A DNA stretch of 64,000 nt from Chloroflexota bacterium (lineage in GTDB: Bacteria > Chloroflexota > Anaerolineae > Anaerolineales > VGOW01). Positions 1-62,380 of the stretch are shown piece by piece. Numbering within the stretch: the stretch's first letter is position 1; every line of letters begins with the position of its first letter. The notes under the pieces were generated by a model. That model saw only the letters and a list, made by a program, of their open reading frames with translations. It was not told the DNA's origin and made no database searches. The translations under genes were made by a program, and so were the position numbers. The stretch is taken from positions 44,675 to 108,674 of the forward strand of contig JACPWC010000057.1 of assembly GCA_016197225.1 (NCBI GenBank). The letters are read 5' to 3'.

Positions 1-239
1 CCGAAGGCGCGGTAGCGGATCTTGAAGCGAGTCTCCGTTGGCATACTGCCGATCCGAATGCCGTCGCCGCCACCCTGGCCGAGGCCCACGCCAGACGCGC
101 TCACGACTTTTCGCGTCTGCCGCTCGACTCGCTGACGCAGGTTATTCAACAAGCCGTCCGCCGGGCGCAGACCGCCGAGTCGGCGGCTCGCGCCGATCCG
201 TATGGCTGCTTCGTCACGCCGGAGGGCGTACATGCCTGA
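1..239 (+). CDS. 3' end of an unidentified upstream gene (C-terminal fragment)
   Basis: Open frame running in from the window edge, translating to ...ARADPYGCFVTPEGVHA* with TGA at 237-239; overlaps the next start (ATG 232). No recognisable motif. Confidence 0.3.
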   Translation, partial: EGAVADLEASLRWHTADPNAVAATLAEAHARRAHDFSRLPLDSLTQVIQQAVRRAQTAESAARADPYGCFVTPEGVHA

Positions 240-1131
240 GAAAGAAATCGTCTTTCACGCGCCCGGCCTCAAACGCTTCAAAACGTCCGAATACGCGACG
301 CAAGAACTGACACGTTTTGTGTCTATTAGCGTCACCGGCACCGAGTGCGCCCTGGCCTGTGAGCATTGCAAAACCCACGTGCTCGAAGGCATGACGGCTC
401 TGCCAAAGTTCGACGGCTCGCTCTTCGATTTATGTTGTGAACTCGCCGAACGTGGCGCGCGCGGCGTGCTGGTGTCCGGCGGGTGCGACCGGCACGGGCG
501 CGTGCCGCTTCTCCGTCATCTCCCCGATCTGATTCGCGCTCGGCGCGAACTGGATTTCACCATCCGCGTTCACCCCGGCCTGCCCGATGAAGAAACCGTC
601 GCCGGTCTGGCCGAAGTGGGAATTGACGGGGCAATGGTGGACATCATCGGCGACGACGCGACCATCCGCGAGGTCTATCACCTTGAGACAACCGCCGCCG
701 AGTACGAGGCTGTGTTGGAACGATTAGAACGCTACGAAGTTCCCGCCGTGCCGCACATCATCCTCGGCCTGCACTTCGGGCAGATGCGCGGTGAGTGGGC
801 GGCGCTCGATATGATTGCTCGCCACGCCCGGAAATTTTTGGTGCTGGTGATCCTGATGCCGCTGACGGGGACGCCGATGGTGGGTGTGACTCCGCCGCCG
901 GTCACCGAGGTTGCCGATTTCTTTGCCCTCGCCCGCCAGACCCTGCCGGCCACGCCGGTGATGCTTGGCTGTGCGCGGCCACTCGGCAAGATCAAGGCCG
1001 ACATTGATCGGGCGGCGGTGGACGCCGGGTTGAACGGCATTGCTTATCCGGCGGAAGGCATCATCGCCTATGCCCGCGAGCGCGGTCTCACACCAAAGTT
1101 CGTAGATGCATGTTGTGGAGTGAACTGGTAA
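232..1131 (+). CDS. radical SAM protein, LipS1-like (candidate lipoyl synthase component 1)
   Basis: CALACEHC = CxxxCxxC radical-SAM cluster motif near the N-terminus; ~300 aa. Stop TAA 1129-1131 is immediately followed by the next radical-SAM gene and then a lipoate-protein ligase. An alternative ATG at 202 exists. Confidence 0.6.
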   Translation: MPEKEIVFHAPGLKRFKTSEYATQELTRFVSISVTGTECALACEHCKTHVLEGMTALPKFDGSLFDLCCELAERGARGVLVSGGCDRHGRVPLLRHLPDLIRARRELDFTIRVHPGLPDEETVAGLAEVGIDGAMVDIIGDDATIREVYHLETTAAEYEAVLERLERYEVPAVPHIILGLHFGQMRGEWAALDMIARHARKFLVLVILMPLTGTPMVGVTPPPVTEVADFFALARQTLPATPVMLGCARPLGKIKADIDRAAVDAGLNGIAYPAEGIIAYARERGLTPKFVDACCGVNW

Positions 1132-2214
1132 ATGGCTAAAGTAACGCTTTCAACCAAAGAGCAAAGCGAGCAATTGCAAATCAGCCCGGAGTATGTGCGT
1201 ATTAGCATGGCGGCGGCGATTGAATTGGGGCTTAAGCGGGGCCGTTTGTATCGGGGCGCGCACTGCGGGTGCATCAATCTGCTGCAAAACTATCCCGAGG
1301 GCTGTTACGCCAATTGCACCTATTGCGGTCTGGCCCGCGAGCGGCCCGGCGCGCCGGAAGACAATACCTTCATCCGCGTGGCCTGGCCGTTGTTCCCGAC
1401 CGACCTAGTAGCCGAGAAAATTGCCGAACATCAGGAACGGGTAGGTCGGGTGTGCATCGCTCAGGTGCAAGACCATCGCGCCTACGACGACCTGATTGAC
1501 ATGACTCGGCGCGTGCGCCGCCTGAGCGATGTGCCGATTTCGGCCCTCGTGTCGGCCACCACGCTCAACGAAGAGCGGCTGGTTCACATCAAAGAAGCCG
1601 GCGCCGACATCATCGGTGTTGGGTTGGATGGAGCCAGCGAGGACGTGTTCCATAACACACGCGGCAAAGGCGCGCGCGGCCCGCACGACTGGGATCACCA
1701 CTGGCACATCGTCCGCGCCGCCCGCCAATTATTCGGGCCAATGAAGGTTAACTGCCACATCATCGTCGGCCTCGGCGAGACCGACCGCGATCTGGTCAAC
1801 CTCTTCTACCAACTCAAGTCAGAGCAGATCGCCGGTTACTTGTTCTCGTTCAATCCCGAACCCGGCACGGCCATGCAAGCCGTGCCGCGCGCGCCGATCC
1901 ATCGCTGGCGGCGCATTCAACTCACCAAGCATCTCGTCGAGGAGCGCGACTTGCCGCGCGATGCAATTGAATTCAATGCTAGTGGAGAAATCAGGCGCAT
2001 CAACGCACCCGATATCATGGTCGAAGTCGCCATCAACACCGGCATGCCCTTCATGACCAACGGTTGCCCCGATAAAAACGGCGTCATGGCCTGCAATCGC
2101 CCGTATGGCTCGTACCGCCCCGCCGAAGAGTTTCGTGATTATCCCTTCCTGCCGGAGGCCGATGACCTGGTTCAGATTCGCCAGCAGATGAGGCTGGAAG
2201 AAATCTGGCAGTGA
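1132..2214 (+). CDS. radical SAM protein, LipS2-like (biotin-synthase-related; candidate lipoyl synthase component 2)
   Basis: CYANCTYC CxxxCxxC motif; 360 aa; start abuts the upstream stop (translational coupling); lies between the LipS1-like gene and the LplA-like gene. Confidence 0.6.
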   Translation: MAKVTLSTKEQSEQLQISPEYVRISMAAAIELGLKRGRLYRGAHCGCINLLQNYPEGCYANCTYCGLARERPGAPEDNTFIRVAWPLFPTDLVAEKIAEHQERVGRVCIAQVQDHRAYDDLIDMTRRVRRLSDVPISALVSATTLNEERLVHIKEAGADIIGVGLDGASEDVFHNTRGKGARGPHDWDHHWHIVRAARQLFGPMKVNCHIIVGLGETDRDLVNLFYQLKSEQIAGYLFSFNPEPGTAMQAVPRAPIHRWRRIQLTKHLVEERDLPRDAIEFNASGEIRRINAPDIMVEVAINTGMPFMTNGCPDKNGVMACNRPYGSYRPAEEFRDYPFLPEADDLVQIRQQMRLEEIWQ

Positions 2215-2282
2215 CGTATTGCGTATTCCGTATTACGTAAGCAAAACGGCGGATACGGAATATGCAATACGCAATACGCGAA
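2215..2282. repeat. intergenic imperfect palindrome built from (G/C)CGTATT heptamers
   Basis: cgtattgcgtattccgtattacgtaagc-aaaacggc-ggatacggaatatgcaatacgcaatacg; arms are near reverse complements. Confidence 0.7.
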
Positions 2283-3266
2283 ATGCCGTCCGCGATTCGC
2301 CTTCTCACTCTCGGCCCGACGCACTGGCTCAAAACCCAGTCGGTCTATCACGCCCTGGCGGAGACAATGACGGCGGACTCGCCGGACACCCTCATCCTGG
2401 CCCAACCCTTACAACCGTATCTTTGCCTGGGCTATCACCAGGAATTGCATTCGGTGCTGGATCGCGCGGCGTGCGCCCGGATGCACTTGCCTATCGTCCG
2501 GCGGCGGGTGGGCGGGGGGGTGACGTATTTGGATGTCAACCAACTGTTTTATCAGTGTGTCTTTCACCACATGCGCGTCCCGGCCCTTATCACCGATGTC
2601 TATGCCCGATTGCTGGCCGCGCCGGTAGCGGCTCTGCAAAGACTGGGCTTGAAAGCAGAATTATGCGGCGAGAATGAGATCGAGGTGAACGGCAAACGCA
2701 TCGCCGGCATCGGCGGGGCGCGGATCGGCGAGGCGGCAGTGGTCGTCGGCAACCTGCTGTTCGATTTTGATTACGACAAGATGATACGGGCCTGGCGAGT
2801 TCCCTCCGAAGCTTTTCGCCAATTGGCCGCCGACGCTTTACGCGCACGGTTGACGACACTCTGGGCCGAGCTATCTTATCCCGTCGCGCCGTTTGAAGTT
2901 CAATATACCTTGATTGAAGAGTTTGCCCGCGCCCTTAATCGCTCTGTCGAAGAGGGCAAACTGACCGATGAAGAGATGCGAAAGATTGAAGCAGTCGAGA
3001 AACGGCTGGTCTCGTATCAATGGTTGAACCTCCATAACAATGGCGGCCAGCCTATGTCGGCGCTCAAAATCTCGCGCGGCGTCTTCATCCGCGCCGCTGA
3101 AGCGGATAGGGAAGGTAGCCGCATTCGAGCCGCGTTCCGCTTGCGTGACGACGTGATTGAGGAGGCCTGCCTGGAGTCCGATCCGGCGCAAGACTGGGAT
3201 CAGGTCGAGGCCGGCCTGCGCGGGGTACTGTTCAAGAAGTGGCAAACGCATCTGGCGGCTCGCTGA
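2262..3266 (+). CDS. lplA: lipoate--protein ligase family protein (BPL/LPL catalytic domain)
   Basis: LplA-like segments RRRVGGGVTYLDVNQLFY and NGKRIAGIGGARIGEAAVVVGNLLFD (lipoyl-AMP-binding Lys region). The true start is more likely ATG 2283 (MPSAIRLLTLGP) because 2262 lies inside an intergenic hairpin. Confidence 0.7.
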   Translation: MQYAIREMPSAIRLLTLGPTHWLKTQSVYHALAETMTADSPDTLILAQPLQPYLCLGYHQELHSVLDRAACARMHLPIVRRRVGGGVTYLDVNQLFYQCVFHHMRVPALITDVYARLLAAPVAALQRLGLKAELCGENEIEVNGKRIAGIGGARIGEAAVVVGNLLFDFDYDKMIRAWRVPSEAFRQLAADALRARLTTLWAELSYPVAPFEVQYTLIEEFARALNRSVEEGKLTDEEMRKIEAVEKRLVSYQWLNLHNNGGQPMSALKISRGVFIRAAEADREGSRIRAAFRLRDDVIEEACLESDPAQDWDQVEAGLRGVLFKKWQTHLAAR

Positions 3267-4027
3267 ACGGCAAAGTGGCTCTCGTCACCGGCTCGTCGCG
3301 CGGGATCGGGCGGGCGATTGCGCTGGAACTGGCCGGGGCGGGCGCTGATGTGGTGGTGCATTACGCGCGCAAACAACAAGCGGCGGAAGAAACGGTTGCC
3401 GCCATTGCAGCACTGGGCCGCCGGGCCGTTGCCCTCAAAGCCAATTTGGCCGAGGCCGACAAAATAGAGGCCTTGTACGACTCGTTGGAAGCCGCCTTTG
3501 GCCGCTGTGATATTTTCGTGGGCAATGCGGCCAGCGGGGTTCATGCGCCCATGCTGGAGATTGCCGACAAGCATTGGGACTGGACAATGGATGTGAATGC
3601 GCGCTCCGTCCTGCGGTGCGTCAAACGCGCTGTGCCACACATGGAAAGAGCGGGATGGGGGCGAATTGTGACGATCACCAGTTTGGGAAGCACGCGCGCT
3701 GTTCCCAACTACGGGGCTGTGGGCGTATCCAAAGCGGCTGTAGAGTCCTTGACTCGTTATCTGGCCGTGGAACTGGCCGGCAAGGGCATCATCGCCAACG
3801 CCGTTTCTCCCGGCCTCGTCAACACCGACGCTTTGGAGGCTCTACCAATAGATCAACAGGCCGCTTTGGCGCACGTAGCTCGCCGCAATCCGGTCGGCCG
3901 GCTGGTGACACCGGAAGACGTGGCGCGAGTGGTCGCTTTTCTTTGCTCCGAGGCCGCCGGCATGATCGTGGGGCAGACGATATTGGTTGACGGAGGCTAC
4001 GGGTTATTGACCGAGTATTTTGTATGA
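3239..4027 (+). CDS. SDR-family oxidoreductase (3-oxoacyl-ACP / enoyl-ACP reductase-like)
   Basis: GKVALVTGSSRGIGRAIA Rossmann motif, NAAS and the YxxxK catalytic region; 262 aa. Confidence 0.8.
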   Translation: MANASGGSLNGKVALVTGSSRGIGRAIALELAGAGADVVVHYARKQQAAEETVAAIAALGRRAVALKANLAEADKIEALYDSLEAAFGRCDIFVGNAASGVHAPMLEIADKHWDWTMDVNARSVLRCVKRAVPHMERAGWGRIVTITSLGSTRAVPNYGAVGVSKAAVESLTRYLAVELAGKGIIANAVSPGLVNTDALEALPIDQQAALAHVARRNPVGRLVTPEDVARVVAFLCSEAAGMIVGQTILVDGGYGLLTEYFV

Positions 4028-4039
4028 AATGGAGTATTC

Positions 4040-5587
4040 ATGAATTACGGCTTTGTCATTGACAACCGCAAATGCATCGGCTGTCACGCCTGCTCGACCG
4101 CATGTAAGAGCGAGAACGAAGTAGCGGTCGGCGTCAACCGCACATGGGTGAAGTACACCGAGAAGGGCGTCTTCCCGGACACGCGCCGCTACTTTCAAGT
4201 GACGCGCTGTAACCACTGCGCCAACCCGCCGTGCGTCTACATCTGCCCGGTCACGGCGATGTATCAGCGCAAAGACGGAATCGTCGAATTTGATCCGACG
4301 CGGTGTATCGGCTGCAAAGCCTGTATGCAGGCTTGCCCCTACGACGCCATTTACATTGATCCGAATACGAACACTGCCGCCAAATGCCACTACTGCGCTC
4401 ATCGCACGGACGTGGGCCTCGAACCGGCCTGTGTCGTCGTCTGCCCCGAACACGCCATCCTCGCCGGCGACCTCGACGACCCCAATTCCGAAATCGCGCG
4501 GGCGATTGCCACGCAACAGGTGCGCGCCCGCAAACCGGAGCAAGGCACGAAGCCCAAACTGTTTTACATTGACGCCGAAGAGTCCTCCATCGTCCCAACT
4601 CTCGCAACGCAAGACGGCGGCATGTTGTGGGCCGAGTGGCCCAATCACGGCCAGGGTGACTGGCGCGGCCCGATTCAAATTGGCGATGGAAACATGGCGA
4701 GCGCCCTGGTGCGTTCCGCCGCTGCACCGCGAGAAACGTACAACGCTCCCCACAAGATTCCCTGGCACTGGCAAGTCCCGTCGTACCTCGTCGCCAAATC
4801 AATCGGCGCCGGCGCGTTCATCGTCGCCGCCGTCGGCGTGGCCCTGGGCCTGCTCCCGGCCACGCCGCTCTTCACCACCGTCGCCGCTTTCGTCTCTCTG
4901 CTCTTCATCGGCCTCAACACCGGCCTCCTCGTCTGGGATTTGGATCGGCCTGATCGATTCTGGACGATTCTGATTCGACCACAATGGCGATCGTGGCTGG
5001 CCAGAGGCGCATTTATCCTCGTCGGCTTCACCGGGGTTGGCGGCCTCTATTTCCTCAGCTACCTCTTTAATCTCCAATTCTCTAATCTCCTTCTGTGGCC
5101 CGGCGTCATCCTGGCCGTCCTGTCAGCAATTTACACCGCCTTCCTTTTTGCCCAGGCTGAGGGCCGCGACTTGTGGCAGAGCACACTGCTCCCAGGGCAT
5201 TTCTTTGTGCAAGCCATCATGGCCGGGGCCGCCGCCTTGCTCGTGGTTGGCCCATTCTTCGGCATTGCGCCCGACTCAACTCGCGCCCTGGCCTGGACGT
5301 TCGGGTTGAGCCTGCTTGTCAATTTGCTGATCACCGTCGGCGGCGAGTTTGCTGTGCCGCACGCCAGCCAGGTAGCGGCAACTGCCGCCCACCTGATCAC
5401 CCACGGGCGCTACAAGACTCACTATTGGTTCAGCATCACCGGCGGCCTGCTCCTACCGCTGGCAACCGTTGTCTTCGTCGGCAACTCGCCTGTGGCATTG
5501 GCCGTAGCAAGCCTGCTTTCTCTCGTTGGCTTGTTTGCTTACGAATGGGCATTCGTCATGGCTCCGCAGGAAGTGCCGAATAATTGA
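4040..5587 (+). CDS. 4Fe-4S ferredoxin-type subunit fused to an NrfD/PsrC-like polytopic membrane anchor
   Basis: N-terminal half has four Cys clusters (CIGCHACSTAC; CNHCANPPCVYICP; CIGCKACMQACP; CHYCAHRTD...C) typical of DmsB/PsrB. The C-terminal ~290 aa is strongly hydrophobic with about 8 predicted TM helices. RBS GGAG sits upstream of ATG 4040. Confidence 0.75.
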   Translation: MNYGFVIDNRKCIGCHACSTACKSENEVAVGVNRTWVKYTEKGVFPDTRRYFQVTRCNHCANPPCVYICPVTAMYQRKDGIVEFDPTRCIGCKACMQACPYDAIYIDPNTNTAAKCHYCAHRTDVGLEPACVVVCPEHAILAGDLDDPNSEIARAIATQQVRARKPEQGTKPKLFYIDAEESSIVPTLATQDGGMLWAEWPNHGQGDWRGPIQIGDGNMASALVRSAAAPRETYNAPHKIPWHWQVPSYLVAKSIGAGAFIVAAVGVALGLLPATPLFTTVAAFVSLLFIGLNTGLLVWDLDRPDRFWTILIRPQWRSWLARGAFILVGFTGVGGLYFLSYLFNLQFSNLLLWPGVILAVLSAIYTAFLFAQAEGRDLWQSTLLPGHFFVQAIMAGAAALLVVGPFFGIAPDSTRALAWTFGLSLLVNLLITVGGEFAVPHASQVAATAAHLITHGRYKTHYWFSITGGLLLPLATVVFVGNSPVALAVASLLSLVGLFAYEWAFVMAPQEVPNN

Positions 5588-5630
5588 GAATTAGAGGATT
5601 GGAGAATTCTCTAATTCTCCAATCCTCTCC
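5586..5630. repeat. AT-rich palindrome (GGATTGGAGAATT-ctct-AATTCTCCAATCC) at the FeS-anchor / Mo-subunit gene junction
   Basis: 13-bp perfect arms read directly from the sequence. Confidence 0.75.
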
Positions 5631-5640
5631 ACATGAAACG

Positions 5641-8553
5641 ATGCCTATGACTGACACCATCACCCCTACCCGCCTCACCACCCAACACAACGACGCAGGT
5701 GAACGCCTGCAACAATACCCGCCGCCCGAAAAATGGGACGACTGGGTTGAGTGGGATCACAAACAGTGGCCGAAGAAAGTGCCCAAGCACTACATGCTCG
5801 TGCCGACCGTGTGTTTCAATTGCGAGTCGGCTTGCGGCTTGCTGGGCTGGGTGGATAAAGAGACGATGCAGGTGCGGAAGTTCGAGGGCAACCCGGTCCA
5901 CCCCGGAAGCCGGGGCCGCAACTGCGCCAAAGGCCCGGCCACCATCAATCAAGTCAACGACCCCGACCGCATTCTCTATCCGCTCAAGCGCGCAGGAAAG
6001 CGCGGCGAAGGCAAGTGGGTGCGGGTGACGTGGGAAGAAGTGCTAAAGGACATCGGCGGTCGTATTCGCAAAGCGTTTTTAGAAGAGCGGCACAACGAGA
6101 TCATGTATCACGTTGGCCGCCCCGGCCACGATGGCGTCATGGAATGGATTCTTCCAGCCTGGGGCGTGGACGGCCACAACTCGCACACTAACATTTGCTC
6201 GTCGGGCGCGCGGGCGGGCTACGCTTTTTGGATGGGCTTCGACCGCCCCAGCCCCGACCACGCCAACGCCAACGTCATCCTGCTCATCAGCAGTCATCTC
6301 GAAACCGGCCACTACTTCAACCCGCACGCCCAGCGCATCATCGAGGGCAAGATGAACGGGGCAAAATTGATCGTGTGGGACACCCGGCTGTCGAACACGG
6401 CCTCGATGGCCGACACCTGGATTGCGCCGTGGCCCGGCTCGGAAGCCGCCATCCTGCTCGCCATCGCCAACTACCTCATCACTACTGGCAAATACAACCG
6501 GGAGTTTGTGAAGAAGTGGGTGAATTGGGAAGAGTATCTAAAGGCGACGGCAGACGATGGACGGCAGACGACAGACGACTCGTCGTCCATCGTCCATCGT
6601 CCGTCGTCATTCGATGATTTCGAGGCCGCGCTGAAAGAGCAATACGCAAAATATACGTTTGAGTATGCGGCAAAAGAGTCGGGCGTAGAGGCGGCTGTGT
6701 TGCGGAGGATTGCTGAGGATGTTGCAAACTGCGGCGGCAAACTGGCGACGCACAACTGGCGTAGTGCGGGCGCGGGCAACCTCGGCGGCTGGCAGGTGGC
6801 GCGTTGCCTGTTCTTCCTCAACGTCCTCACCGGCAGCATCGGCGTGGAGGGCGGCACCTCGGCCAATGCGTGGGACAAGTGGGTGCCGCGCCCGCATAAG
6901 TTCCCGCCGCACGGCAAACGCTGGAACGAACTCACCTGGCCGCGCGAGTATCCGCTCTCCTACTTCGAGATGAGCATCCTCCTCCCGCACTTCCTCAAAG
7001 AAGGGCGCGGCAAACTCGACACCTACTTCACCCGCGTCTACAACCCGATGTGGACGAACCCCGATGGCTTCACCTGGCTCGAAGCTCTGCGCGATGAGTC
7101 GAAGATTGGTTGTCACGTCGCCCTCACGCCCACGTGGAGCGAGTCGGCGTGGTGGGCCGATTACGTTCTGCCGATGGGCCACGCCTCCGAGCGCCACGAC
7201 CTGATGAGTCAGGAGACGCATGCCGGGCAGTGGATTGCTTTCCGCCAGCCGGTCAATCGCGTGGCGATGGAACGAATGGGAAAGAAAGTCAACCGCACCT
7301 ACGAAGCCAACCCCGGCCAGGTTTGGGAAGAGACTGAGTTCTGGATTGACCTGAGTTGGGAGATTGACCCCGACGGGGCACTCGGCATCCGTCAGTATTT
7401 CGAGTCGCCCTATCGCCCCGGCGAGCGCATTACGATGGACGAGTTCTACGGCTGGATGTTTGAGAACACCGTGCCCGGCCTGCCGGAGGCCGCCGCAAGG
7501 GAAGACTTGAAGCCGCTGGCGTACATGCGGAAATATGGCGCGTTCGAGATTCGCAAAGGCGCGTTGACTGAATACGACCGGACGCTTGCGCCTGAAGAAA
7601 TGACTGACGCGCAAGTGGATGAGGCGACGGGCATCATCTACATCAAGACTCCGATGACGCCGCCGAAAAACATCGTGCCGACTCCTGCCCCCGTCACCAC
7701 CGACTTAGGGCGACCCGTCGGCGTGATGGCCGGCGGCCAACCAAAGTTCGGCTTCCGCACCCCGTCGCGCAAACTCGAATTCTTTTCGACCACCCTCCGC
7801 GATTTCGGCTGGCCCGAAGTTGCCACGCCCGAATACATCGAGAGCCACGTCCACCCCAGCCGGGTCAACCGTGAGGCCAATGAGTTCGTTTTGCTTTCTA
7901 CCTATCGCCTCCCGACTCTGATCCACACCCGAAGCGCCAACGCCAAATGGCTGGTTGAAATTTCGCACTCCAACCCGACGTGGATTCACACCAGTGATGC
8001 CAACCGGCTTGGAGTTAAGACGGGCGAGTTGGTGCGCGTCGAAACCGAGATCGGTTATTTTGTGGATAAAGTCTGGGTCACCGAAGGCATCCGCCCCGGC
8101 GTGATCGCCTGCTCGCATCACCTCGGCCGCTGGCGGCTGACCGAAGGTGACGGCACAAACCGGATCGCCTCGGCGCTGGTTGAACTAAAAGAGGCGGGCG
8201 GCCAGTGGCAATTGACTCAACTCCACGGCGTCCAGCCGTACAAATCCTCCGACCCGGACACCGAGCGCATCTGGTGGAGTGATGCCGGCGTCCACCAGAA
8301 TCTCACCTTCCCCGTCCAGCCCGACCCGATCAGCGGCATGCACTGCTGGCATCAGAAAGTGAAAGTGACAAGAGCGCAACCCGGCGACCGTTACGGTGAT
8401 GTTCACGTAGACACGAACAAAGCCCACGAAGTGTACAAGCGCTGGCTGGCGATGGCCCGCCCGCCGACCGGCGAGTGGCGGCGGCCCAATTGGATGCTGA
8501 GACCGTTCCGGCCCGACGTGAGCGCGTACCGAATTAAGAAGGATGAAGGATGA
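5641..8553 (+). CDS. molybdopterin (bis-MGD) oxidoreductase catalytic subunit, PsrA/PhsA/TtrA-like (CISM family)
   Basis: N-terminal MopB FeS motif CFNCESACGLL...NCAKG; ~970 aa. No twin-arginine signal is visible. The ORF track starts at TTG 5584, which lies inside a hairpin; ATG 5641 (MPMTDT) is preferred. Carries an in-frame palindromic insert (DDGRQTTDDSSSIVHRPSS). Confidence 0.75.
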   Translation: MPMTDTITPTRLTTQHNDAGERLQQYPPPEKWDDWVEWDHKQWPKKVPKHYMLVPTVCFNCESACGLLGWVDKETMQVRKFEGNPVHPGSRGRNCAKGPATINQVNDPDRILYPLKRAGKRGEGKWVRVTWEEVLKDIGGRIRKAFLEERHNEIMYHVGRPGHDGVMEWILPAWGVDGHNSHTNICSSGARAGYAFWMGFDRPSPDHANANVILLISSHLETGHYFNPHAQRIIEGKMNGAKLIVWDTRLSNTASMADTWIAPWPGSEAAILLAIANYLITTGKYNREFVKKWVNWEEYLKATADDGRQTTDDSSSIVHRPSSFDDFEAALKEQYAKYTFEYAAKESGVEAAVLRRIAEDVANCGGKLATHNWRSAGAGNLGGWQVARCLFFLNVLTGSIGVEGGTSANAWDKWVPRPHKFPPHGKRWNELTWPREYPLSYFEMSILLPHFLKEGRGKLDTYFTRVYNPMWTNPDGFTWLEALRDESKIGCHVALTPTWSESAWWADYVLPMGHASERHDLMSQETHAGQWIAFRQPVNRVAMERMGKKVNRTYEANPGQVWEETEFWIDLSWEIDPDGALGIRQYFESPYRPGERITMDEFYGWMFENTVPGLPEAAAREDLKPLAYMRKYGAFEIRKGALTEYDRTLAPEEMTDAQVDEATGIIYIKTPMTPPKNIVPTPAPVTTDLGRPVGVMAGGQPKFGFRTPSRKLEFFSTTLRDFGWPEVATPEYIESHVHPSRVNREANEFVLLSTYRLPTLIHTRSANAKWLVEISHSNPTWIHTSDANRLGVKTGELVRVETEIGYFVDKVWVTEGIRPGVIACSHHLGRWRLTEGDGTNRIASALVELKEAGGQWQLTQLHGVQPYKSSDPDTERIWWSDAGVHQNLTFPVQPDPISGMHCWHQKVKVTRAQPGDRYGDVHVDTNKAHEVYKRWLAMARPPTGEWRRPNWMLRPFRPDVSAYRIKKDEG
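6545..6612. repeat. GACGA-family palindromic mini-element inserted in frame in the Mo-enzyme catalytic gene
   Basis: gacgatggacggcagacgacagacgac / tcgtcgtccatcgtccatcgtccgtcgtc; encodes DDGRQTTDDSSSIVHRPSS. Confidence 0.7.
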
Positions 8554-8585
8554 ATTACGAAATGAAGCTTCATCCTTCATCCTTC
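8538..8585. repeat. palindrome (GAAGGATGAAGGATGAA ... TTCATCCTTCATCCTTC) spanning the stop/start junction of the Mo-subunit and TorD-like genes
   Basis: Inverted arms flank the ATGA overlap. Confidence 0.65.
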
Positions 8586-9455
8586 ACGCGAAGCGTTCAT
8601 CCTTTGCTTTCCCATCTCTGGCTTCACGAACCGGATGCAGAGGCAGTGGCCCGCGCGGCGGCTGAGTTGGATTTGCCCTTCGCCGATCCAACCGAACTTG
8701 CTTCCGCTTACACCGATGTCTTTCTACTCAACGTTTACCCTTACGGCACGGCCTTCACTGATCCGTCTGGCGAATTGAACGGCCCGGCGGCGCAGGAAAT
8801 GGCGGCGTTGTACGAGGCGCATGGCTACCAGCCGCCCGAACTGAATGTGGTCGGCGCACCGGATCATGTAGGACTATGTTTGGGGTTTCTAGGAAAATTA
8901 GGAGAATTAGACGCGAAGCGTAGAGAATTATCTCTTGACTGGATTGCTGTATGTTGCCTTGCCGTCGAGCGGGAATCGGCCGCGCCGCCTTTTTATCGCG
9001 CCCTCGCCAACATCACCCGCGAAGCGCTGTTTGCGCACCACGCGCCCCCTTCCGCACCCATCGCCAATTCTCCAATTCTCCAATTCTTGAATCCGCAGGA
9101 AGAACTTTCCCTTCGCGACCTCGTCCGCTTCTTCCTCGCCCCGGCGCAGTGCGGCGTGTTTCTCTCACGCTCACAGCTGGGGCAGATGGCAAAGGCATTG
9201 GGGTTGAGGCTCCCGTTTGGATCGCGGTTTGAAGTGGCGGAGATGTTGTTCGCCAGCGCGGGCGAGGCGGAACAGATTGAACAGTTAATTGGCACATTGG
9301 AGGCCGAAGTTCAGGTATGGGCGACGGAATATCGGGCTTGGGCAGAGAAGTATCCAGAATGGCGGCCCCTTGCCGACGCCTGGCTCGCACGGACGGCGGA
9401 GGCTGACCACCTGTTGGCCGGGATGCGGCAGATGGCGACGACGGCGATCACATGA
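8550..9455 (+). CDS. TorD/DmsD-family redox enzyme maturation chaperone-like protein
   Basis: ATGA overlap with the upstream stop. Region FTDPSGELNGPAAQEMAALYEAHGY...PDHVGLCLGFLGKL matches the TorD-like pattern (PDH..ELEF). At 301 aa it is longer than typical. Confidence 0.5.
   Translation: MNYEMKLHPSSFTRSVHPLLSHLWLHEPDAEAVARAAAELDLPFADPTELASAYTDVFLLNVYPYGTAFTDPSGELNGPAAQEMAALYEAHGYQPPELNVVGAPDHVGLCLGFLGKLGELDAKRRELSLDWIAVCCLAVERESAAPPFYRALANITREALFAHHAPPSAPIANSPILQFLNPQEELSLRDLVRFFLAPAQCGVFLSRSQLGQMAKALGLRLPFGSRFEVAEMLFASAGEAEQIEQLIGTLEAEVQVWATEYRAWAEKYPEWRPLADAWLARTAEADHLLAGMRQMATTAIT
9064..9090. repeat. CCAATTCT tandem triplet inside the TorD-like CDS (encodes NSPILQF)
   Basis: ccaattctccaattctccaattct, a low-GC island in a high-GC gene. 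Confidence 0.55.
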
Positions 9456-10213
9456 CGCCGCCAACACTCCCCGACTATCTCGAACTACGCTTACGTTTCG
9501 CCGTCACACGCGAAGCGGCGCAGGGCGCGCTCAATTGGGCGCAACCGCTGGCAATGGAAACTCTCGGCGTGCACACTCAGCGGCAAACACTCGTCGAAGG
9601 CGAACTGCCCGCTTACCTCGTGATGACCACGCCCGAAACCAACGGTGGCTGGTCGGAACTCATGCCGTTGTGGTTCAAGCCCTACGAGCGCCCGGTGCCA
9701 CTCCATTGCCTCGACAACTGGGCCCTGTTCGCTTTGCTCTATCGTTCCGCCTTCGGCTCGGATGCCGACACGCCGGCCTTCGCCGTTGAAAATCTGGCGC
9801 GGGTGATCATCGGCGCAGATTTGCTCATCCCGTTTTTGCCGGGCACTGACGGGGCCGGGCGGTTCTTGCGGCATGGCGCTCTGCCAATCTTGTTAGCGAT
9901 CTTGTGGCTTGAGTCGGAAGTGCGCGACGCCTGGTTAGCTCTGCACGAATGCGGCGGGCAAATATTCGTCGCCGAAAATAACTTGCGGGACGTCGAAAAT
10001 CTGAACGAATGGCTAGAGCGAATTGAGAATGAGGCCTGGCTGGCGCCTGAACGCGAAGCGGTTGCCAGCGAGGCGGCGGTCGCCACATTTTTGGCCGACC
10101 CAACACGTTTCACTCAGTACAGCGCGTTGTTCGGCGGACTGTGTTTGAGTGTGGCGGCCCTGGCCGCCGCACTGGGCAGTGATTGGCGGCAGTGGGTATT
10201 TCCTTTCTGGTGA
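9452..10213 (+). CDS. hypothetical protein, translationally coupled to the TorD-like gene
   Basis: ATGA overlap at 9452-9455; 253 aa; no recognisable motif. Confidence 0.45.
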   Translation: MTPPTLPDYLELRLRFAVTREAAQGALNWAQPLAMETLGVHTQRQTLVEGELPAYLVMTTPETNGGWSELMPLWFKPYERPVPLHCLDNWALFALLYRSAFGSDADTPAFAVENLARVIIGADLLIPFLPGTDGAGRFLRHGALPILLAILWLESEVRDAWLALHECGGQIFVAENNLRDVENLNEWLERIENEAWLAPEREAVASEAAVATFLADPTRFTQYSALFGGLCLSVAALAAALGSDWRQWVFPFW

Positions 10214-11022
10214 CTCTCTTCTTGTGGATCGAGGCGCGCCGCTATCGCTATTACGAATTATGGAGTCTGCGCACGCGGCTGATGGAAACGGATTTCTACG
10301 CCGCCATGCTCGTGCCGCCATTTGCCCCCAGTCCCGAATGGGCCGAGAGCCTCTCGGAAAGCCTCCTCCAGCCCGATTTCCCCATCAGCATGTGGGAGGC
10401 TTTTGGCCGCCGCTTCCGCCGCAACTATTTGTGGATCTTTCTTATCCTGGCCGCCGCCTGGTTGCTCAAGACATTTCTACATCCCGTTCCGGCCGCCTCG
10501 TTTGAAGAAATGATCGTCCGCTCCGGCCTCGGCCCCGTTCCCGGCTGGGCGGTGCTTGCCGCCGGCCTGTTGTACAACGGAGTGCTATTCATGATCGGCT
10601 TTCTCACTGCCGGACTCAATCAGGCCACCGGAGAGGTCTTGCCCAAATGGGGCGGCAACTTCCCGGTGCTCAACACCCTGTGGCGAGCGATGGAAGTGCG
10701 CGATTCCGAAACGGCGGCCAGCCCCCGATCTGCCTCGCGGCCAACCGGGCGAAAGCGCAACCAGTTATTAGCCTTCATCATCTCCTCCAAACCGCAGGCA
10801 ATTTCCGACCGGGTGCTCAAGGAATTGAATCGCGGCCTCACCGCTCTACACGGGCGCGGCATGTATGCTCAACAGGAACGTGATGTGCTGATGATTGCCG
10901 TGACCGTCACCGAAATGCAACGCCTCAAATCGCTGATCAAGGCCGAAGACCCGAATGCCTTCTGCATCATCGCCCCGGCACAGGAGATCCTCGGGCGAGG
11001 CTTTCAGCCACTGGAAAAGTGA
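10183..11022 (+). CDS. membrane protein with a C-terminal DUF2179-like (PII-fold, YitT-type) domain
   Basis: N-terminal TM segments; C-terminal LMIAVTVTEMQRLKSLIKAEDPNAFCIIAPAQEILGRGF resembles the DUF2179 signature. Confidence 0.5.
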   Translation: MAAVGISFLVTLFLWIEARRYRYYELWSLRTRLMETDFYAAMLVPPFAPSPEWAESLSESLLQPDFPISMWEAFGRRFRRNYLWIFLILAAAWLLKTFLHPVPAASFEEMIVRSGLGPVPGWAVLAAGLLYNGVLFMIGFLTAGLNQATGEVLPKWGGNFPVLNTLWRAMEVRDSETAASPRSASRPTGRKRNQLLAFIISSKPQAISDRVLKELNRGLTALHGRGMYAQQERDVLMIAVTVTEMQRLKSLIKAEDPNAFCIIAPAQEILGRGFQPLEK

Positions 11023-11115
11023 AGTCTCTCGCCGACGTGCTGGCCGGAACCATGCCTGGGCTTGACTTACCGCAATTCTGCCAGAGTTTGAGCCACTTAA
11101 CACACGCACCAACGC

Positions 11116-12345
11116 CTAGCCGAGCCAGAACGGAAAAATCAGGAAGAGGACGACATTGATCAACCCGTGGGCAATCGAAACGCCCAGGAGTGAGCCTGTT
11201 CGGGCGACGATGAGACTGAACAGCAGTCCCACGCCAAAGGCAAAGACAAGCTCTAACGGCAAAGCGTAACCCAGATGCCAGGCGGCGAATAGCACGGCCA
11301 CGTAGGGAATGCCGAATCGCCCCAGACTTTCGACGGCGGTTCGTTGTATCAATCCGCGAAAGATCAATTCTTCGACAAACCCGCCGAACACCATCAGGAT
11401 CAGGGCTGGCAACCACAGCTGCTCCCACGTCAGAGACTCGATCAAGCGGGGCGGTCGCAAAATGAGATATTCGACGTAACCCAATCCGATGCCGGACAAG
11501 CCGACGACGAGTTGCACCGGCAGGCCCCGAACGGTCAGCCCCATCTTCCGCCCACCAAACCCTATCGTTCGCGCCGTTAAAAATACGGCGACCATCAGCG
11601 GCAGGCCGACCACCAACGGCCAAAACGTTGGCGGGAATTGCGCCAGCGGAACAGCCAGACTGAGAATCCGGATCAGGGGAGCCAGGCTCAGGCTCAACAC
11701 GAATCGCTGTTGCGGGCCGCGGCCTCTAAACGAAGCATGGATGATAAGCGCAATAAAAAGCACAATGTGCAACCCTAATCCGATCACCGGCGATACCAGG
11801 GTCGTGATACCTTCGGCCAGGATCAGCGCGGCCAGATAGCCAAACGGGGCGACAAGATTTTCGTTGACTTGGAGCTTGCTGAAGCGGGGGCGGGCAACTG
11901 CCGCGTTCGAGGCGTTGGCTGCCTCTAAATCTGCGAGCGGCGGGTTTGTAATCTCTGCGATGGCGGCATTCAGGGCTGGCGGCGTCTGTGTTTCAATTTT
12001 AGACGTTAGCTCTGCCGCCCAGTTCAAGCCATCGGCGGCGAGAGGGTTATCCGGCTCAAGGACTAACGCTTGTTTGAAATAGTCCAGAGCCGCCGCCGGA
12101 GTCGGCGCGGTCCAACCCAGCAGCAGCCAGGCCTGAAAATGTGCGGGGTCGAGTTTGACGGCGGTCTGGAGCAGCTGATGAGCCGCGTCGGGCCGGTTGG
12201 CGCGCAGGGCCGCCAGCGCCGCGACGAACGGCGTTTCCCCCGTCGGCGCTGAGGCAAGGTCCTGAGTGGTGTTAGCCATGAACGCATTATAACTTTTTGC
12301 GGCACAACACACTGTAGCCGAGAGTAAAGTCCTGTGCGCGATCAA
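11116..12345 (-). CDS. TPR-repeat protein fused to a CPBP (CAAX/Abi) intramembrane metalloprotease domain
   Basis: N-terminal TPR-like helices; C-terminal FVEELIFRGL...WHLGY, i.e. the EExxxR and H motifs of the CPBP family, with multiple TM helices. Confidence 0.7.
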   Translation of the reverse strand: MIAHRTLLSATVCCAAKSYNAFMANTTQDLASAPTGETPFVAALAALRANRPDAAHQLLQTAVKLDPAHFQAWLLLGWTAPTPAAALDYFKQALVLEPDNPLAADGLNWAAELTSKIETQTPPALNAAIAEITNPPLADLEAANASNAAVARPRFSKLQVNENLVAPFGYLAALILAEGITTLVSPVIGLGLHIVLFIALIIHASFRGRGPQQRFVLSLSLAPLIRILSLAVPLAQFPPTFWPLVVGLPLMVAVFLTARTIGFGGRKMGLTVRGLPVQLVVGLSGIGLGYVEYLILRPPRLIESLTWEQLWLPALILMVFGGFVEELIFRGLIQRTAVESLGRFGIPYVAVLFAAWHLGYALPLELVFAFGVGLLFSLIVARTGSLLGVSIAHGLINVVLFLIFPFWLG

Positions 12346-25113: not shown

Positions 25114-25475
25114 ATGTTCTCCTTTGCAAAGTAGCGCTCCAGTGACCGGAGCTTTCCAAAATGTTGGGTTGCGCCTTGCCTTCCGGCAAAATAAAACGAG
25201 CCTGGTAAATCCAGGCTCGTTGAAGCTAAATTAGGAATGCGAGGGCCTATAATAAAAACTTCGGCGGCCTGGCGGTCATGGCCGACTCAGGCGGCTGTAG
25301 ACCCATAGCTTTGCGCCCCCGGCTTTCGCCGGGTTTGCCTTTATCAAGTTTTTAAGTTGACAGGTTCTATATTTACTTCTTAGTCTGGCGTTAGTATATG
25401 TCAGCATAATGATGATGTCAGTTGGTTTTTGGAGGGAATAGTTAGGAAAAGTAACATAAATTCCAGCGCCGGTGC

Positions 25476-30364: not shown

Positions 30365-31686
30365 TGGGATACACGTTTGCCGAAAAAGCTCTGGCCCGCG
30401 CCGCCGGGCTGTCCCACGCCGTCGCCGGGCAAGTGGTGGACGCCCGCCCCGACATTGTCCTCTCGCACGACAACACGGCGGCCATCGCCAAAATCTTTCG
30501 CTCTATCGGGCTGGAGCGCGTGGCTATCCCCGACCGAATGGCGATCACCCTCGACCACGCCGTGCCAGCGCCCACTACCAAACACGCTCAGAACCACGCC
30601 GAAGTGCGAGCCTTCGTCAAAGAGCAGGGCATCAAGCATTTCTTTGAAGTCGGGCGCGGCATTTGTCATCAGGTCTTCAGTGAAGAAGCGTTGATCCTGC
30701 CCGGCCAACTCATCCTGGGATCGGACTCGCACACGGCGCACTTCGGCTGGCTGGGGGCGTTTGGCGCGGGCGTGGGCCGTACCGAAGTGGCCGCCCTGTG
30801 GGCGACCGGCGAACTCTGGTTGCGCGTGCCGGAGAGCATGAAGATTGTGGTCACCGGCGAACTGGGCCGGGGCATCACCGCCAAAGACCTGTCCCTGCAT
30901 ATCATCGGCCAACTCGGCGCAGAGGGCGGGTTGTACATGTCGGTCGAACTCTCCGGCCCGGCCATCGAACAGATGAGTCTGGAGAGCCGCATGGTTATCC
31001 CCAATATGATGGCCGAGTTTGGGGCGAAGAATGCCTACCTTGCCCCGGACGAAAAAGTGTTTGAGTATCTGGCCGAGAGGCGGCTCAGACGTGTTGCGTA
31101 TTCCGTATTGCGTAACGCGGACGCTCGGTCAGCCATCAACGATCAGAAATCAACTATCAAAGAATTGGCTCTGTATCCGGACCCCGACGCAGTTTACGCC
31201 GCCGTTCATACCTTTGACGCCTCAGCCATCAGTCTCACCGTCTCTTGCCCCCACACCGTTGACTCAACCCAACCCCTTTCCGCCGTCCGGGGAACGCGCA
31301 TCCATCAGGCCTTCATCGGGACTTGCACCAACGGGCGCGTGGAAGACCTCGCGGCGGCGGCAGAAATCGTGAGGGGCAGGAAAGTTGCTCCGGGCACCCG
31401 CCTGCTCGTCGTCCCGGCCTCCTCTGAAGTTTATGCCGATGCGATTCGCCTGGGCCACGTTCAGACGCTGATGGAGGCAGGCGCGGTGTTCGGCACGCCG
31501 GGCTGTGGGCCGTGCATGGGCAACCACATGGGCGTGCTGGCCCCGGGCGAAGTCTGCCTCTCGACGGCCAACCGCAACTTCAAGGGCCGCATGGGACAGC
31601 CTGAGGCGGAAATTTATCTGGCCAGCCCGGCGGTGGTAGCGGCGAGCGCGGTGACGGGCGTGATTACCGATCCGAGAGAGTTGTGA
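30364..31686 (+). CDS. aconitase-family dehydratase large subunit (3-isopropylmalate dehydratase / homoaconitase LeuC-HacA-like)
   Basis: GICHQV...LGSDSHT...GTCTNGR...GCGPCMG, the aconitase-family Cys ligand motifs; ~440 aa archaeal-type. Contains an in-frame CGTATT heptamer insertion. Confidence 0.8.
31093..31119. repeat. CGTATT-heptamer element copy inside the LeuC-like CDS
   Basis: gttgcgtattccgtattgcgtaacgcg, the same heptamers as the 2215-2282 hairpin; in frame ([12 protein letters not shown]). Confidence 0.55.
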
Positions 31687-41192: not shown

Positions 41193-41221
41193 GGGTTTGG
41201 ATTATACTCTGAGTGAACAAT

Positions 41222-41270
41222 TGGCAAATCCCAATTCTCAACTCCCAAAATCCCAAATCCCAACTTCCAA
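41222..41270. repeat. AT-rich CCCAA(A)T(C) repeat tract upstream of the carboxyltransferase start
   Basis: aatcccaattctcaactcccaaaatcccaaatcccaacttccaaca. Confidence 0.5.
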
Positions 41271-41272
41271 CA

Positions 41273-42913
41273 ATGCCTGTCATCGAATCCCAACTCAACC
41301 CAAACGACGAACGCTTCAAAGAGAACGCCGAACACAACCGGGCGCTGGCCGAAGAATTGCGGACGCGGCTGGCGCAAGCCCGGCAGGGTGGCGGCGAGAA
41401 GTATCAGCGGCGGCACGAGGCGCAGGGCAAGTTGTTTGTGCGCGAGCGCATTGACAAACTGCTCGATCCCAATTCTCCATTTCTCGAATTCTCCCCATTG
41501 GCGGCCTGGCACATGTATCACAACGAAGCGCCGGGCGCGGGCCTCGTCACCGGCATTGGCCGCGTGAGCGGGCGCGAGTGCCTGATTGTGGCCAACGACG
41601 CGACGGTAAAAGGCGGCTCCTACCTGCCGATGACGGTGAAGAAGCATTTGCGGGCGCAGGAGATCGCGCAAGAGAATCGACTGCCGTGCATTTATCTGGT
41701 GGACTCTGGCGGCGCGTTTTTGCCATTGCAGGCCGAGGTCTTTCCCGACCACGATCACTTTGGCCGCATCTTCTACAACCAGGCGCGGATGAGCGCGCTG
41801 GGCATCCCGCAGATTGCGGCGGTGATGGGCAGTTGCACGGCAGGCGGGGCCTACGTTCCGGCGATGAGCGACGAGACAGTGATTGTTCAAGGGACGGGCA
41901 CGATCTTTCTGGCCGGGCCGCCGCTGGTGAAGGCGGCGACGGGTGAAGAAGTGACCGCCGAGGAGTTGGGCGGCGCGTGGGTTCACACTCACAAGTCCGG
42001 CGTGGCCGACCATTTTGCCGAGGACGATGAGCAGGCGCTGGAGATGGTGAGAGAAATCGTTGCGACACTGGGAGACGAAGGACGAAGGACGATGGACGGT
42101 AGACAACAATCGTCGGTCGTCGGTCGTCCGTCGTCGGTGGAAGAACCGCTGTATCCTGCTGAGGAGTTGTATGGGATTATTCCAAAGTCGTTCCGCGAGT
42201 CTTATGATGCGCGGGAGGTGATTGCGCGGCTGGTGGACGGGAGCGAACTGCGCGAGTTCAAGGCCAACTACGGCACGACGCTGGTGACGGGCTTTGCCCG
42301 CATTGACGGTTTCCCCGTCGGCATCATTGCCAACAACGGGGTACTGTTCAGCGAGAGCGCCTTGAAGGGCGCGCACTTTGTCGAACTTTGCGCGGCGCGG
42401 GACATCCCGCTATTGTTTTTGCAGAACATCACCGGCTTCATGGTCGGGCGCGAATACGAGGCGGGCGGCATCGCCAAAGACGGGGCCAAGATGGTGCATG
42501 CCGTCGCCAACGCCCGCGTGCCCAAGTTTACAATCATCATCGGCGGCAGTTTTGGCGCGGGCAACTACGGCATGTGCGGGCGGGCCTACCAGCCGCGCTT
42601 CCTGTGGATGTGGCCCAACGCTCGCATCAGCGTGATGGGCGCTGAGCAGGCGGCCAACGTTCTACTGACGGTGAAGCAGGATCAACTGGCCCGCGAGGGC
42701 AAGCCGCCGATGTCGCCCGAAGAGGCAACCGCTTTCAAACAGCCCACGCTCGACAAGTACGAAGCCGAAGGCAGTCCCTATTACTCGACGGCGCGGCTTT
42801 GGGATGATGGGATTCTTGATCCGGTGGAGACGCGGCGTGCCCTGGGGTTGGCGATTGCGGCGGCTTACAATGCGCCGGTGGAGGAGACGAAGTATGGCGT
42901 GTTCAGAATGTGA
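41273..42913 (+). CDS. acyl-CoA carboxylase carboxyltransferase (beta) subunit (propionyl-/methylcrotonyl-CoA carboxylase beta-like)
   Basis: Two crotonase-like CT domains, with [10 protein letters not shown] and [13 protein letters not shown] motifs. The ORF track starts at 41213, but ATG 41273 follows an AT-rich repeat. Confidence 0.8.
42070..42138. repeat. GACGA-family palindromic mini-element inserted in frame in the carboxyltransferase gene
   Basis: gacgaaggacgaaggacgatggacgg...cgtcggtcgtcggtcgtccgtcgtcgg; encodes [21 protein letters not shown]. Confidence 0.7.
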
Positions 42914-42924
42914 GGAGGGAGAAG

Positions 42925-62159: not shown

Positions 62160-62380
62160 GGCAACTCTTATCCAGAGAGGCGGAGGGACCAGCCCGATGA
62201 AGCCTCGGCAACCGTCTGGATGTTAGAGGTTAGAGGTTAGAAATTGGAGAACTTCCAAAATCTAACATCCAACTTCCAACCTCCAAAATTGGTGCCAATT
62301 CCGGCAGGTATCTGGAAGATGAGAGGGAGCCACGAGTTAAATCGCCATGCCCCTTCTCCGCCAGAAGGGGCTTTTATTTA
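62160..62380 (+). promoter_or_regulatory. SAM-I (S-box) riboswitch with an expanded P3 stem, plus terminator-type expression platform
   Basis: CUCUUAUCCAGAGAGGCGGAGGGACCAGCCCGAUGAAGCCUCGGCAACC ...GGUGCCAAUUCCGGCAG...GAAGAUGAGAGG matches the SAM-I consensus blocks. A ~75-nt imperfect palindrome (62222-62290) is inserted where P3 normally closes. Terminator ccccttct-ccgcc-agaagggg + cttttattt at 62349-62380. Confidence 0.8.

Follow-up and report, generated by a model that had tools for sequence, protein, structure and literature searches.

A very probable LipS1/LipS2 lipoyl synthase pair in an Anaerolineae bacterium and its likely place in a type II sHdr-LbpA sulfur-oxidation cluster

Two adjacent genes for radical S-adenosylmethionine (SAM) proteins, set beside genes of the LplA family, raise the question of which cofactor they make and for which protein. 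Such an arrangement opens a stretch of 64,000 nucleotides from a Chloroflexota bacterium (Anaerolineae; Anaerolineales; VGOW01; assembly GCA_016197225.1, contig JACPWC010000057.1, positions 44,675 to 108,674 of the forward strand), called the window below. An earlier note, made from the letters of the window, had read the pair as the split lipoyl synthase LipS1/LipS2. The two proteins are very probably this known two-protein enzyme. We further consider it likely, with good confidence, that the window begins among the genes for cofactor maturation of a type II sHdr-LbpA cluster for sulfur oxidation, in which LipS1/LipS2 and the ligase Lpl1 would lipoylate the lipoate-binding protein LbpA. Four kinds of result carry this reading: the profile matches that assign the families, the conserved ligands, the order of the genes, and their conserved synteny with those for LbpA and sHdr.

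The first radical-SAM gene, lipS1 (232..1131 on the + strand; its open reading frame, ORF, runs from 202), encodes 299 amino acids, or 309 when read from 202, and carries the motif CALACEHC. The second, lipS2 (1132..2214, + strand), encodes 360 amino acids with the motif CYANCTYC, so that the sizes of about 300 and 360 residues given in the earlier note were accurate. The ATG of lipS2 at 1132 abuts the TAA stop codon of lipS1 (1129-1131) and has a GGAG 11 nt upstream of it, which makes the translational coupling that had been proposed plausible. On the other side, the ATG of lipS1 (232) and the stop of the upstream gene lpl1, of which the last 79 codons lie in the window (1..239, + strand), overlap by 8 nt (ATGCCTGA). 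Both radical-SAM products match Pfam Radical_SAM; the product of the LplA-like gene lpl2 that follows them matches LplA-B_cat, and that of the next gene, for a short-chain dehydrogenase/reductase (SDR), matches adh_short. Among the ORFs of at least 180 amino acids in the window, lipS1 and lipS2 are the sole carriers of CX3CX2C. A motif scan found the LipA motifs CX4CX5C and RSSY in no ORF of the 64-kb window.

LipS1 scores 236 bits with the LipS1 equivalog model NF053742, over positions 5-268 of its 268, and passes the curated cutoff of 230. Its score with the BioB model (TIGR00433) is 15.3 bits, for a cutoff of 225. The residues of its radical-SAM motif (C39/C43/C46), C247, the pair C294-C295, and H175 are invariant in 20 of 20 orthologues, including those of Arenicellales at 64-67 % identity. 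LipS1/LipS2 was established in Thermococcus kodakarensis, as TK2109/TK2248 (Neti et al. 2022, PMC9585515), where the ligands of TkLipS1 were mapped to C27/C31/C34, C230, C276/C277, and H159. C39/C43/C46, C247, C294/C295, and H175 sit at these positions with a consistent offset of +12 to +18.

LipS2 matches the model NF053743 along the whole profile (1-292 of 292) with 203.8 bits. The next match, BioB, lies about 157 bits lower at 46.6, again below its cutoff, and is followed by HmdB (31 bits), PylB (22 bits), and LipA (16-22 bits; 16.5 for TIGR00510, the cutoff of which is 310). This comparison of profile hidden Markov models (HMMs), which the earlier note had called for, bears directly on another explanation, namely that one or both proteins are BioB-, HydE-, PylB- or HmdB-like and act on a different substrate, for instance to make biotin for the carboxylase encoded at 41213-44712 in the window. 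That explanation can point to this biotin-dependent carboxylase, to the names "biotin synthase" or "radical SAM protein" that homologues bear in the sources, to a LipS2 score under the curated cutoff, and to HydE, PylB, LipA, and BioB as the solved folds nearest to the LipS2 model. The AlphaFold2 (AF2) model of LipS2 has a pLDDT of 94.2, and the four fold matches, obtained with Foldseek in the PDB, reach just a TM score of ~0.5 at 12-18 % identity; they agree with the published placement of LipS proteins in the similarity megacluster of BioB. No solved LipS1 or LipS2 structure was found by PDB sequence search. When 1.84 billion cluster representatives were searched exhaustively with HMMER, 66 full-length matches were taken and aligned with the window protein, to which they are 25-58 % identical. 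All 67 members of this set of full-length 50 %-cluster representatives match the LipS2 model at E ≤ 1e-10 (best 1e-113), whereas the other families match at most 39, then 38, then 34 (BioB) of them. Together with the low BioB scores of both proteins and their fixed place in the gene order beside LplA-family and GcvH-like genes, these results make a BioB-, HydE-, PylB- or HmdB-like function very improbable.

The ligand residues of LipS2 can be followed through the same 67 representatives: C62, C108, and C321 are invariant, and conservation is 90 % or more at C58, C65, H209, and C312. C58/C62/C65 form the radical-SAM motif. The ligands of TkLipS2 were mapped to C39/C43/C46, C85, C276/C279, and H178 (PMC9585515); C58/C62/C65, C108, C312/C321, and H209 correspond to them with steadily growing offsets. 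The last two cysteines are spaced CXXC in 42 and CX8-10C in 13 of the representatives. An Arenicellales orthologue scores 202 bits with the LipS2 model, and the CX8C subclade of Anaerolineae and Arenicellales, with ~200 bits, falls as a whole under the NCBIfam threshold, which is why its members are called "radical SAM protein" or "biotin synthase" in public records. Four further proteins of 645-683 amino acids (P0130, P0133, P0197, and P0260) have a LipS2-like domain at their N- or C-terminus, to which LipS1 or a ligase may be fused.

The likeness to the Thermococcus system is considerable: in both cases there are two BioB-like radical-SAM proteins, each with CX3CX2C and a set of auxiliary ligands, and LipA motifs are absent. 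Like TkLipS1, LipS1 has a conserved His and a single Cys in addition to a CC pair at the C-terminus; LipS2 resembles TkLipS2 in that one Cys follows the radical-SAM motif, two more lie at the C-terminus, and a His is conserved. The lipS genes of T. kodakarensis are more than 130 genes apart, whereas here they are adjacent and coupled, in a bacterial host and in a context of sulfur oxidation. Compared with TkLipS2, the window protein has an N-terminal extension of ~20 amino acids, CX8C instead of CXXC, and the extra, lineage-specific cysteines C45, C47, and C208. LipA leads to the same end product; it too is a radical-SAM enzyme that inserts sulfur into protein-bound octanoyl-lysine and sacrifices an auxiliary [4Fe-4S] cluster. 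Unlike the pair, it inserts both sulfurs as one protein, C6 first, and is marked by the CX4CX5C and RSSY motifs.

Published work on Thermococcus, Thioalkalivibrio, and Hyphomicrobium allows the chemistry, the substrates, and the order in which the sulfurs are inserted to be inferred by analogy. Lpl1 would couple free octanoate (or lipoate), at the expense of ATP, to the conserved Lys of a GcvH-like LbpA encoded upstream. LipS2 is predicted to be the radical-SAM sulfur insertase that acts first, at C8 of octanoyl-lysine; to place a sulfur there, it would use a 5'-deoxyadenosyl radical formed from SAM and sacrifice an auxiliary [4Fe-4S] cluster held by Cys108, Cys312, Cys321, and probably His209. 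LipS1 (auxiliary ligands Cys247, Cys294, Cys295, and His175) is predicted to be the sulfur insertase for C6 of 8-mercapto-octanoyl-lysine and would add the second sulfur there to give lipoyl-LbpA.

Which protein receives the lipoyl group is best approached from the upstream side. Over 5615 bp, a Logan contig (L001) matches the window without a mismatch; it reaches 1067 bp further upstream and gives the order gcvH-like C-terminus (L001:2-175), lpl1 (L001:179-1306), and lipS1. Lpl1 is a lipoate/octanoate-protein ligase of the Lpl(AB) type with 375 amino acids. A local Lpl HMM matches its end in the window (3-236) with 71.6 bits. The whole protein scores 145.6 bits with TIGR00545 (over 4-313 of 328; the equivalog cutoff of 280 is not reached) and 135.8 bits with LplAB, and the LplB model matches a C-terminal region of its orthologue in L018 with E = 2e-4. 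The catalytic Lys is present in Lpl1 (NGRKIVG) and in 23 of 23 orthologues. Two genes of the LplA family, lpl1 and lpl2, stand on either side of the adjacent and coupled pair lipS1-lipS2, and the GcvH-like gene lies upstream.

Synteny was traced with contig L018, a metagenome scan with the HdrC-HdrB fusion, and a tblastn table over 98 loci. The closest genomes are Anaerolineae/Anaerolineales metagenome-assembled genomes, in which LipS1 is 82-92 % identical. In more than ten related contigs the order starts with a two-component regulator, a TusA-domain protein, DsrE2, and DsrE, and continues with an Fer4 dicluster protein (sHdrC1), a CCG protein (sHdrB1), a flavoprotein (sHdrA, Pyr_redox_2), a 265-amino-acid protein without Pfam match in the H position, an HdrC+HdrB fusion (sHdrB3), EtfB, and EtfA. 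It ends with a membrane Fer4-CCG protein (Emo), two small proteins, three GcvH-like proteins, Lpl1, LipS1, LipS2, Lpl2, and a molybdenum enzyme. Type II sHdr has been defined by shdrC1B1AHB3 and etfAB in one syntenic cluster, with emo, and has been reported mostly from Chloroflexota, Actinobacteriota, and Bacillota (PMC11094781). This gene set, with LbpA, was seen in the relatives L033, L030, L043, L097, and others. A gene for a four-helix protein of the "23S rRNA-intervening sequence protein" family lies between sHdrA and the next sHdr gene at L033:8657-9061; it is present in the sHdr cluster of some relatives and not of others.

The three GcvH-like proteins are encoded in tandem upstream of lpl1 (L018:6108-7657, L002:7252-8676, and, for the end of one of them in the source genome, L001:2-175). 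None of them reaches the gcvH equivalog cutoff, and all three keep the lipoyl-Lys. N- and C-terminal cysteines define LbpA (Cao 2018, PMC6067878); paralogues a and b have both of them, and paralogue c, which adjoins lpl1, has neither. As the block with the lipS genes ends a conserved type II sHdr-LbpA cluster in the related contigs, the targets of lipoylation are probably LbpA proteins.

This fits with a pathway already established in bacterial sulfur oxidizers, in which sLpl(AB) acts with LipS1/S2 (Cao 2018, PMC6067878; Tanabe 2023, PMC10332631) and in which lipoylation of LbpA by these proteins was shown experimentally (Tanabe 2023, PMC10332631). There, too, a ligase, LipS1, and LipS2 are encoded beside LbpA genes and an sHdr cluster. 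The published proteobacterial order is lipS1-slpl(AB)-lipT-lipS2, with one ligase and with LipT, whereas here it is lbpA-lpl1-lipS1-lipS2-lpl2 without LipT. The proteobacterial clusters also differ in that the present one has a second LplA-like gene lacking the codon for the catalytic Lys, and an sHdr system of type II (sHdrB3-EtfAB-Emo). Rearranged lipS-lpl clusters in Chloroflexota were already remarked on by Tanabe 2023 (PMC10332631).

The pair might instead, as the earlier note implied, be the general and sole lipoyl synthase of the organism, replacing LipA for GcvH and the E2 proteins of 2-oxoacid dehydrogenases. In Thermococcus, LipS1/S2 do serve general lipoylation (PMC9585515), and there is no lipA in the 64-kb window. 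The published table of Chloroflexota genomes can be read both ways: it lists 62 genomes with LipS1 and LipS2, and 50 with sHdr in the phylum; of the 62, 35 are without LipA and 27 have it, while Lpl is found in 41, LipM plus Lpl in 28, and LipT in 11 (Tanabe 2023, PMC10332631). On these counts, it is roughly an even bet whether LipA is missing from the source genome. In every relative examined, however, the lipS genes are embedded between three LbpA genes and the remaining sHdr cluster, and sLpl(AB) of sulfur oxidizers is described as an LbpA-specific ligase in the title of a published paper (PMC6067878). The context suggests dedicated maturation of LbpA in sHdr sulfur oxidation over general lipoylation; a general and sole role is somewhat doubtful. 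The two roles are not mutually exclusive.

Several points weigh against dedicated LbpA maturation by LipS1/LipS2 as set out here. LipS2 lies under its NCBIfam curated cutoff (203.8 against 270 bits), its last two cluster cysteines form CX8C and not the CXXC of Thermococcus, and the chemistry is assigned to this CX8C subclade by analogy. For both proteins, the equivalence to the T. kodakarensis residues follows from published residue numbers, offsets, and family conservation and not from a direct alignment. No LipT-like electron donor is encoded in the cluster. For the source genome, all that is visible of LbpA and sHdr upstream is one LbpA-like gene cut to its final 57 residues, and the window itself contains no sHdr genes. 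With these points taken into account, the profile scores and the residues of the auxiliary clusters support LipS1/LipS2 beside LplA-family genes, as the earlier note had it.

That note had also placed an LplA-family ligase downstream of the pair. The gene is lpl2 (2262..3266, + strand), encoding an LplA-fold paralogue of 334 amino acids; its start may be the ATG at 2283 instead of 2262, which would give 327 amino acids. The fold stands: Lpl2 scores 105.8 bits with PF21948, and its AF2 model (pLDDT 94.6) has the LplA/LipB catalytic-domain fold, with Thermoplasma acidophilum LplA as the best match (TM score 0.89, root-mean-square deviation 2.4 Å). The role as a ligase probably does not, as Arg occupies the position of the invariant catalytic Lys (K133 of Escherichia coli LplA). 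The motif NGKRIAG of Lpl2 lies opposite GKKFCG, GEKKIMG, GKKVSG, and GFKVSG of solved LplAs. This placement was obtained by HMMER alignment to two solved LplAs, by MAFFT with 50 relatives, by BLASTP to Lpl1, and with a 48-sequence profile against five solved LplAs, including the T. acidophilum enzyme. Arg is found at this position in 120 of the 120 closest Lpl2 homologues (53-100 % identical). Because the preceding residue varies among homologues (K, R, Q, L, S, or C), no shifted Lys replaces the catalytic one. Lpl2 also lacks the His of the LplA "HHG" motif (VVVGN).

In LplA, LipB, and BirA, the invariant Lys has been reported to be essential for catalysis. Lpl2 is not classed as an active ligase here, as Arg takes the place of that Lys; Lpl1, cut by the start of the window, is the likelier ligase and the better candidate for the role given to the downstream gene. 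The Lpl2 gene is not decaying: some 40 % of its positions, including the RRxGGG motif, are invariant among close orthologues, and its pocket is conserved. The invariant positions, the complete two-domain LplA fold in a high-confidence model, and the positive charge preserved by Arg would also suit an ordinary active ligase with Arg standing in for Lys in catalysis. On that view, Lpl1 and Lpl2 would be a pair of ligases acting on different LbpAs, of which there are indeed three paralogues to be served. Yet Lpl1, the one ligase of the related clusters, and all solved LplAs in the alignments have the Lys, and the missing "HHG" His points the same way. We regard an active Lpl2 as unlikely; to judge from its sequence, it is more likely an accessory protein, a transferase or an adaptor, than an adenylating ligase, and its role is uncertain. 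In the closest GTDB genome, a third LplA-like paralogue is encoded downstream of lpl2 (L002:13098-14100); it is 37 % identical to Lpl2 and is also without the catalytic Lys (GARLGT).

The related clusters give some indication of how such a protein may have arisen. In a second group with type II sHdr (metagenome loci L049-L096), two LbpA genes are followed by one gene for a Lys-containing ligase and then by the FeS/NrfD gene. The clusters of this group have no lipS1, lipS2, lpl1, or third LbpA gene; their single ligase is encoded at the position of Lpl2 and is closer to Lpl2 (~190 bits) than to Lpl1 (~100 bits). Arenicellales chromosomes (Gammaproteobacteria; L012, L013, L015, and L016, at ~8360-12030) contain the module lbpA_c-lpl1-lipS1-lipS2, with LipS proteins that are 64-67 % identical to those of Anaerolineae. 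The module there adjoins a gene for a YeeE/TsuA-like transporter, and in L012 and L016 sHdrA, sHdrB1, and DsrE were detected nearby on the other strand. This distribution suggests that the lbpA_c-lpl1-lipS1-lipS2 module was transferred between phyla.

A more speculative and rather improbable extension is that this mobile module (41-67 % identity in Arenicellales) was inserted into an older Anaerolineae sHdr cluster, upon which the resident ligase, Lpl2, lost its Lys and became an LplA-fold accessory protein that was kept under selection in hundreds of lineages. One option for such an accessory role is that of an amidotransferase, which would take octanoyl or lipoyl groups off LbpA_c, the paralogue without the Cys, and hand them to the two LbpAs that have them, by analogy with the GcvH/LipL relay of Bacillus. 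The other option is an adaptor that would present acylated LbpA to LipS2 and LipS1. Several LplA-fold proteins cooperate in Plasmodium (LipL1/LipL2) and in the LipM-GcvH-LipL relay of Bacillus, one activating or loading the acyl group and another transferring it. In such systems with two LplA paralogues, a GcvH-like protein can be the assembly platform. To our knowledge, the transferases of the Plasmodium and Bacillus relays keep the invariant Lys, whereas Lpl2 has Arg.

The spacer between lipS2 and lpl2 holds an inverted repeat (2215..2279, assigned to no strand) with arms of 25 nt made of GTATTNC heptamers; its RNA fold has an energy of -36.5 kcal/mol (z = -4.2). Heptamer-repeat hairpins of other sequence occur at the same intergenic position in L003, L005, L006, and L018; the position of the hairpin is conserved and its sequence is not. 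Its role might lie in mRNA processing or stability, or in attenuation between lipS2 and lpl2. The GTATTNC motif has one further occurrence in the window (31091-31115). Operon boundaries could not be drawn from the scans of the window: promoter-like sites were no commoner than in shuffled sequence, and the 20 terminator-like sites (12.6 expected) were weak and scattered.

Downstream of lpl2 comes the SDR gene (3275..4027, with an ORF from 3239, + strand), whose product belongs to the enoyl-acyl carrier protein reductase family and is FabL-like (NF005975, 336 bits, cutoff 328). The earlier note had counted an SDR as part of the arrangement. It is present as described and does not belong to the conserved part: among the compared loci, only L011 and L057/L058 share an SDR here with the window, and with so few relatives having it, it is probably outside the core system. 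It was considered as a substitute for LipT and rejected, not being conserved in the cluster.

It is followed by the genes for a fused 4Fe-4S/NrfD membrane subunit (4040-5587, 515 amino acids), a molybdopterin oxidoreductase (5584-8553, 989 amino acids), and a NarJ/TorD-type chaperone (8550-9455), named from NCBIfam and Pfam matches. In the ORF map, all genes from lipS1 through that of the chaperone are co-directional on the + strand. The same order of FeS/NrfD, molybdenum enzyme, and chaperone genes after lpl2 occurs in L002, L004, L007, L009, L011, and L018, and the relatives all have these genes behind the sHdr/LbpA/lip cluster, whether or not lipS1/S2 are present in it. The best NCBIfam matches of the three proteins (PhsA, TtrB, and DsrO) are all far below the cutoffs. 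No twin-arginine motif was seen at the N-terminus of the 989-residue oxidoreductase. The three genes may encode a cytoplasm-facing, SoeABC-like sulfite dehydrogenase that uses sulfite from sHdr; synteny suggests that they are linked to the lipoylation genes.

Elsewhere in the window, the only other protein with a swinging-arm cofactor is the biotin-dependent acyl-CoA carboxylase mentioned above (41213-44712), which consists of a carboxyltransferase and a biotin carboxylase fused to the biotin carboxyl carrier protein. A weak match to an LbpA profile at 42820-44709 is the biotinyl domain of this enzyme and was rejected as a lipoyl protein. Two riboswitches score above the Rfam gathering score: c-di-GMP-I-GGC at 25259-25348 (- strand, 73 bits) and SAM (S-box) at 62165-62325 (+ strand, 77 bits).

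The pathway and its occurrence in Chloroflexota have already been published (Tanabe 2023), NCBI already distributes models of LipS1 and LipS2, and the known outline of the pathway is unchanged by the present findings. What is added is modest: a paralogue with Lys replaced by Arg, an under-called subclade of LipS2, and a module of four genes. Genome surveys that use the LipS2 cutoff of 270 would under-call the pathway, and "lipoate-protein ligase" is probably the wrong label for a widespread and well-conserved paralogue of the Lpl2 type. For this uncultured Anaerolineae lineage, the findings would tie the noncanonical LipS1/LipS2 route to cytoplasmic sulfur oxidation by sHdr-LbpA and not to central metabolism.

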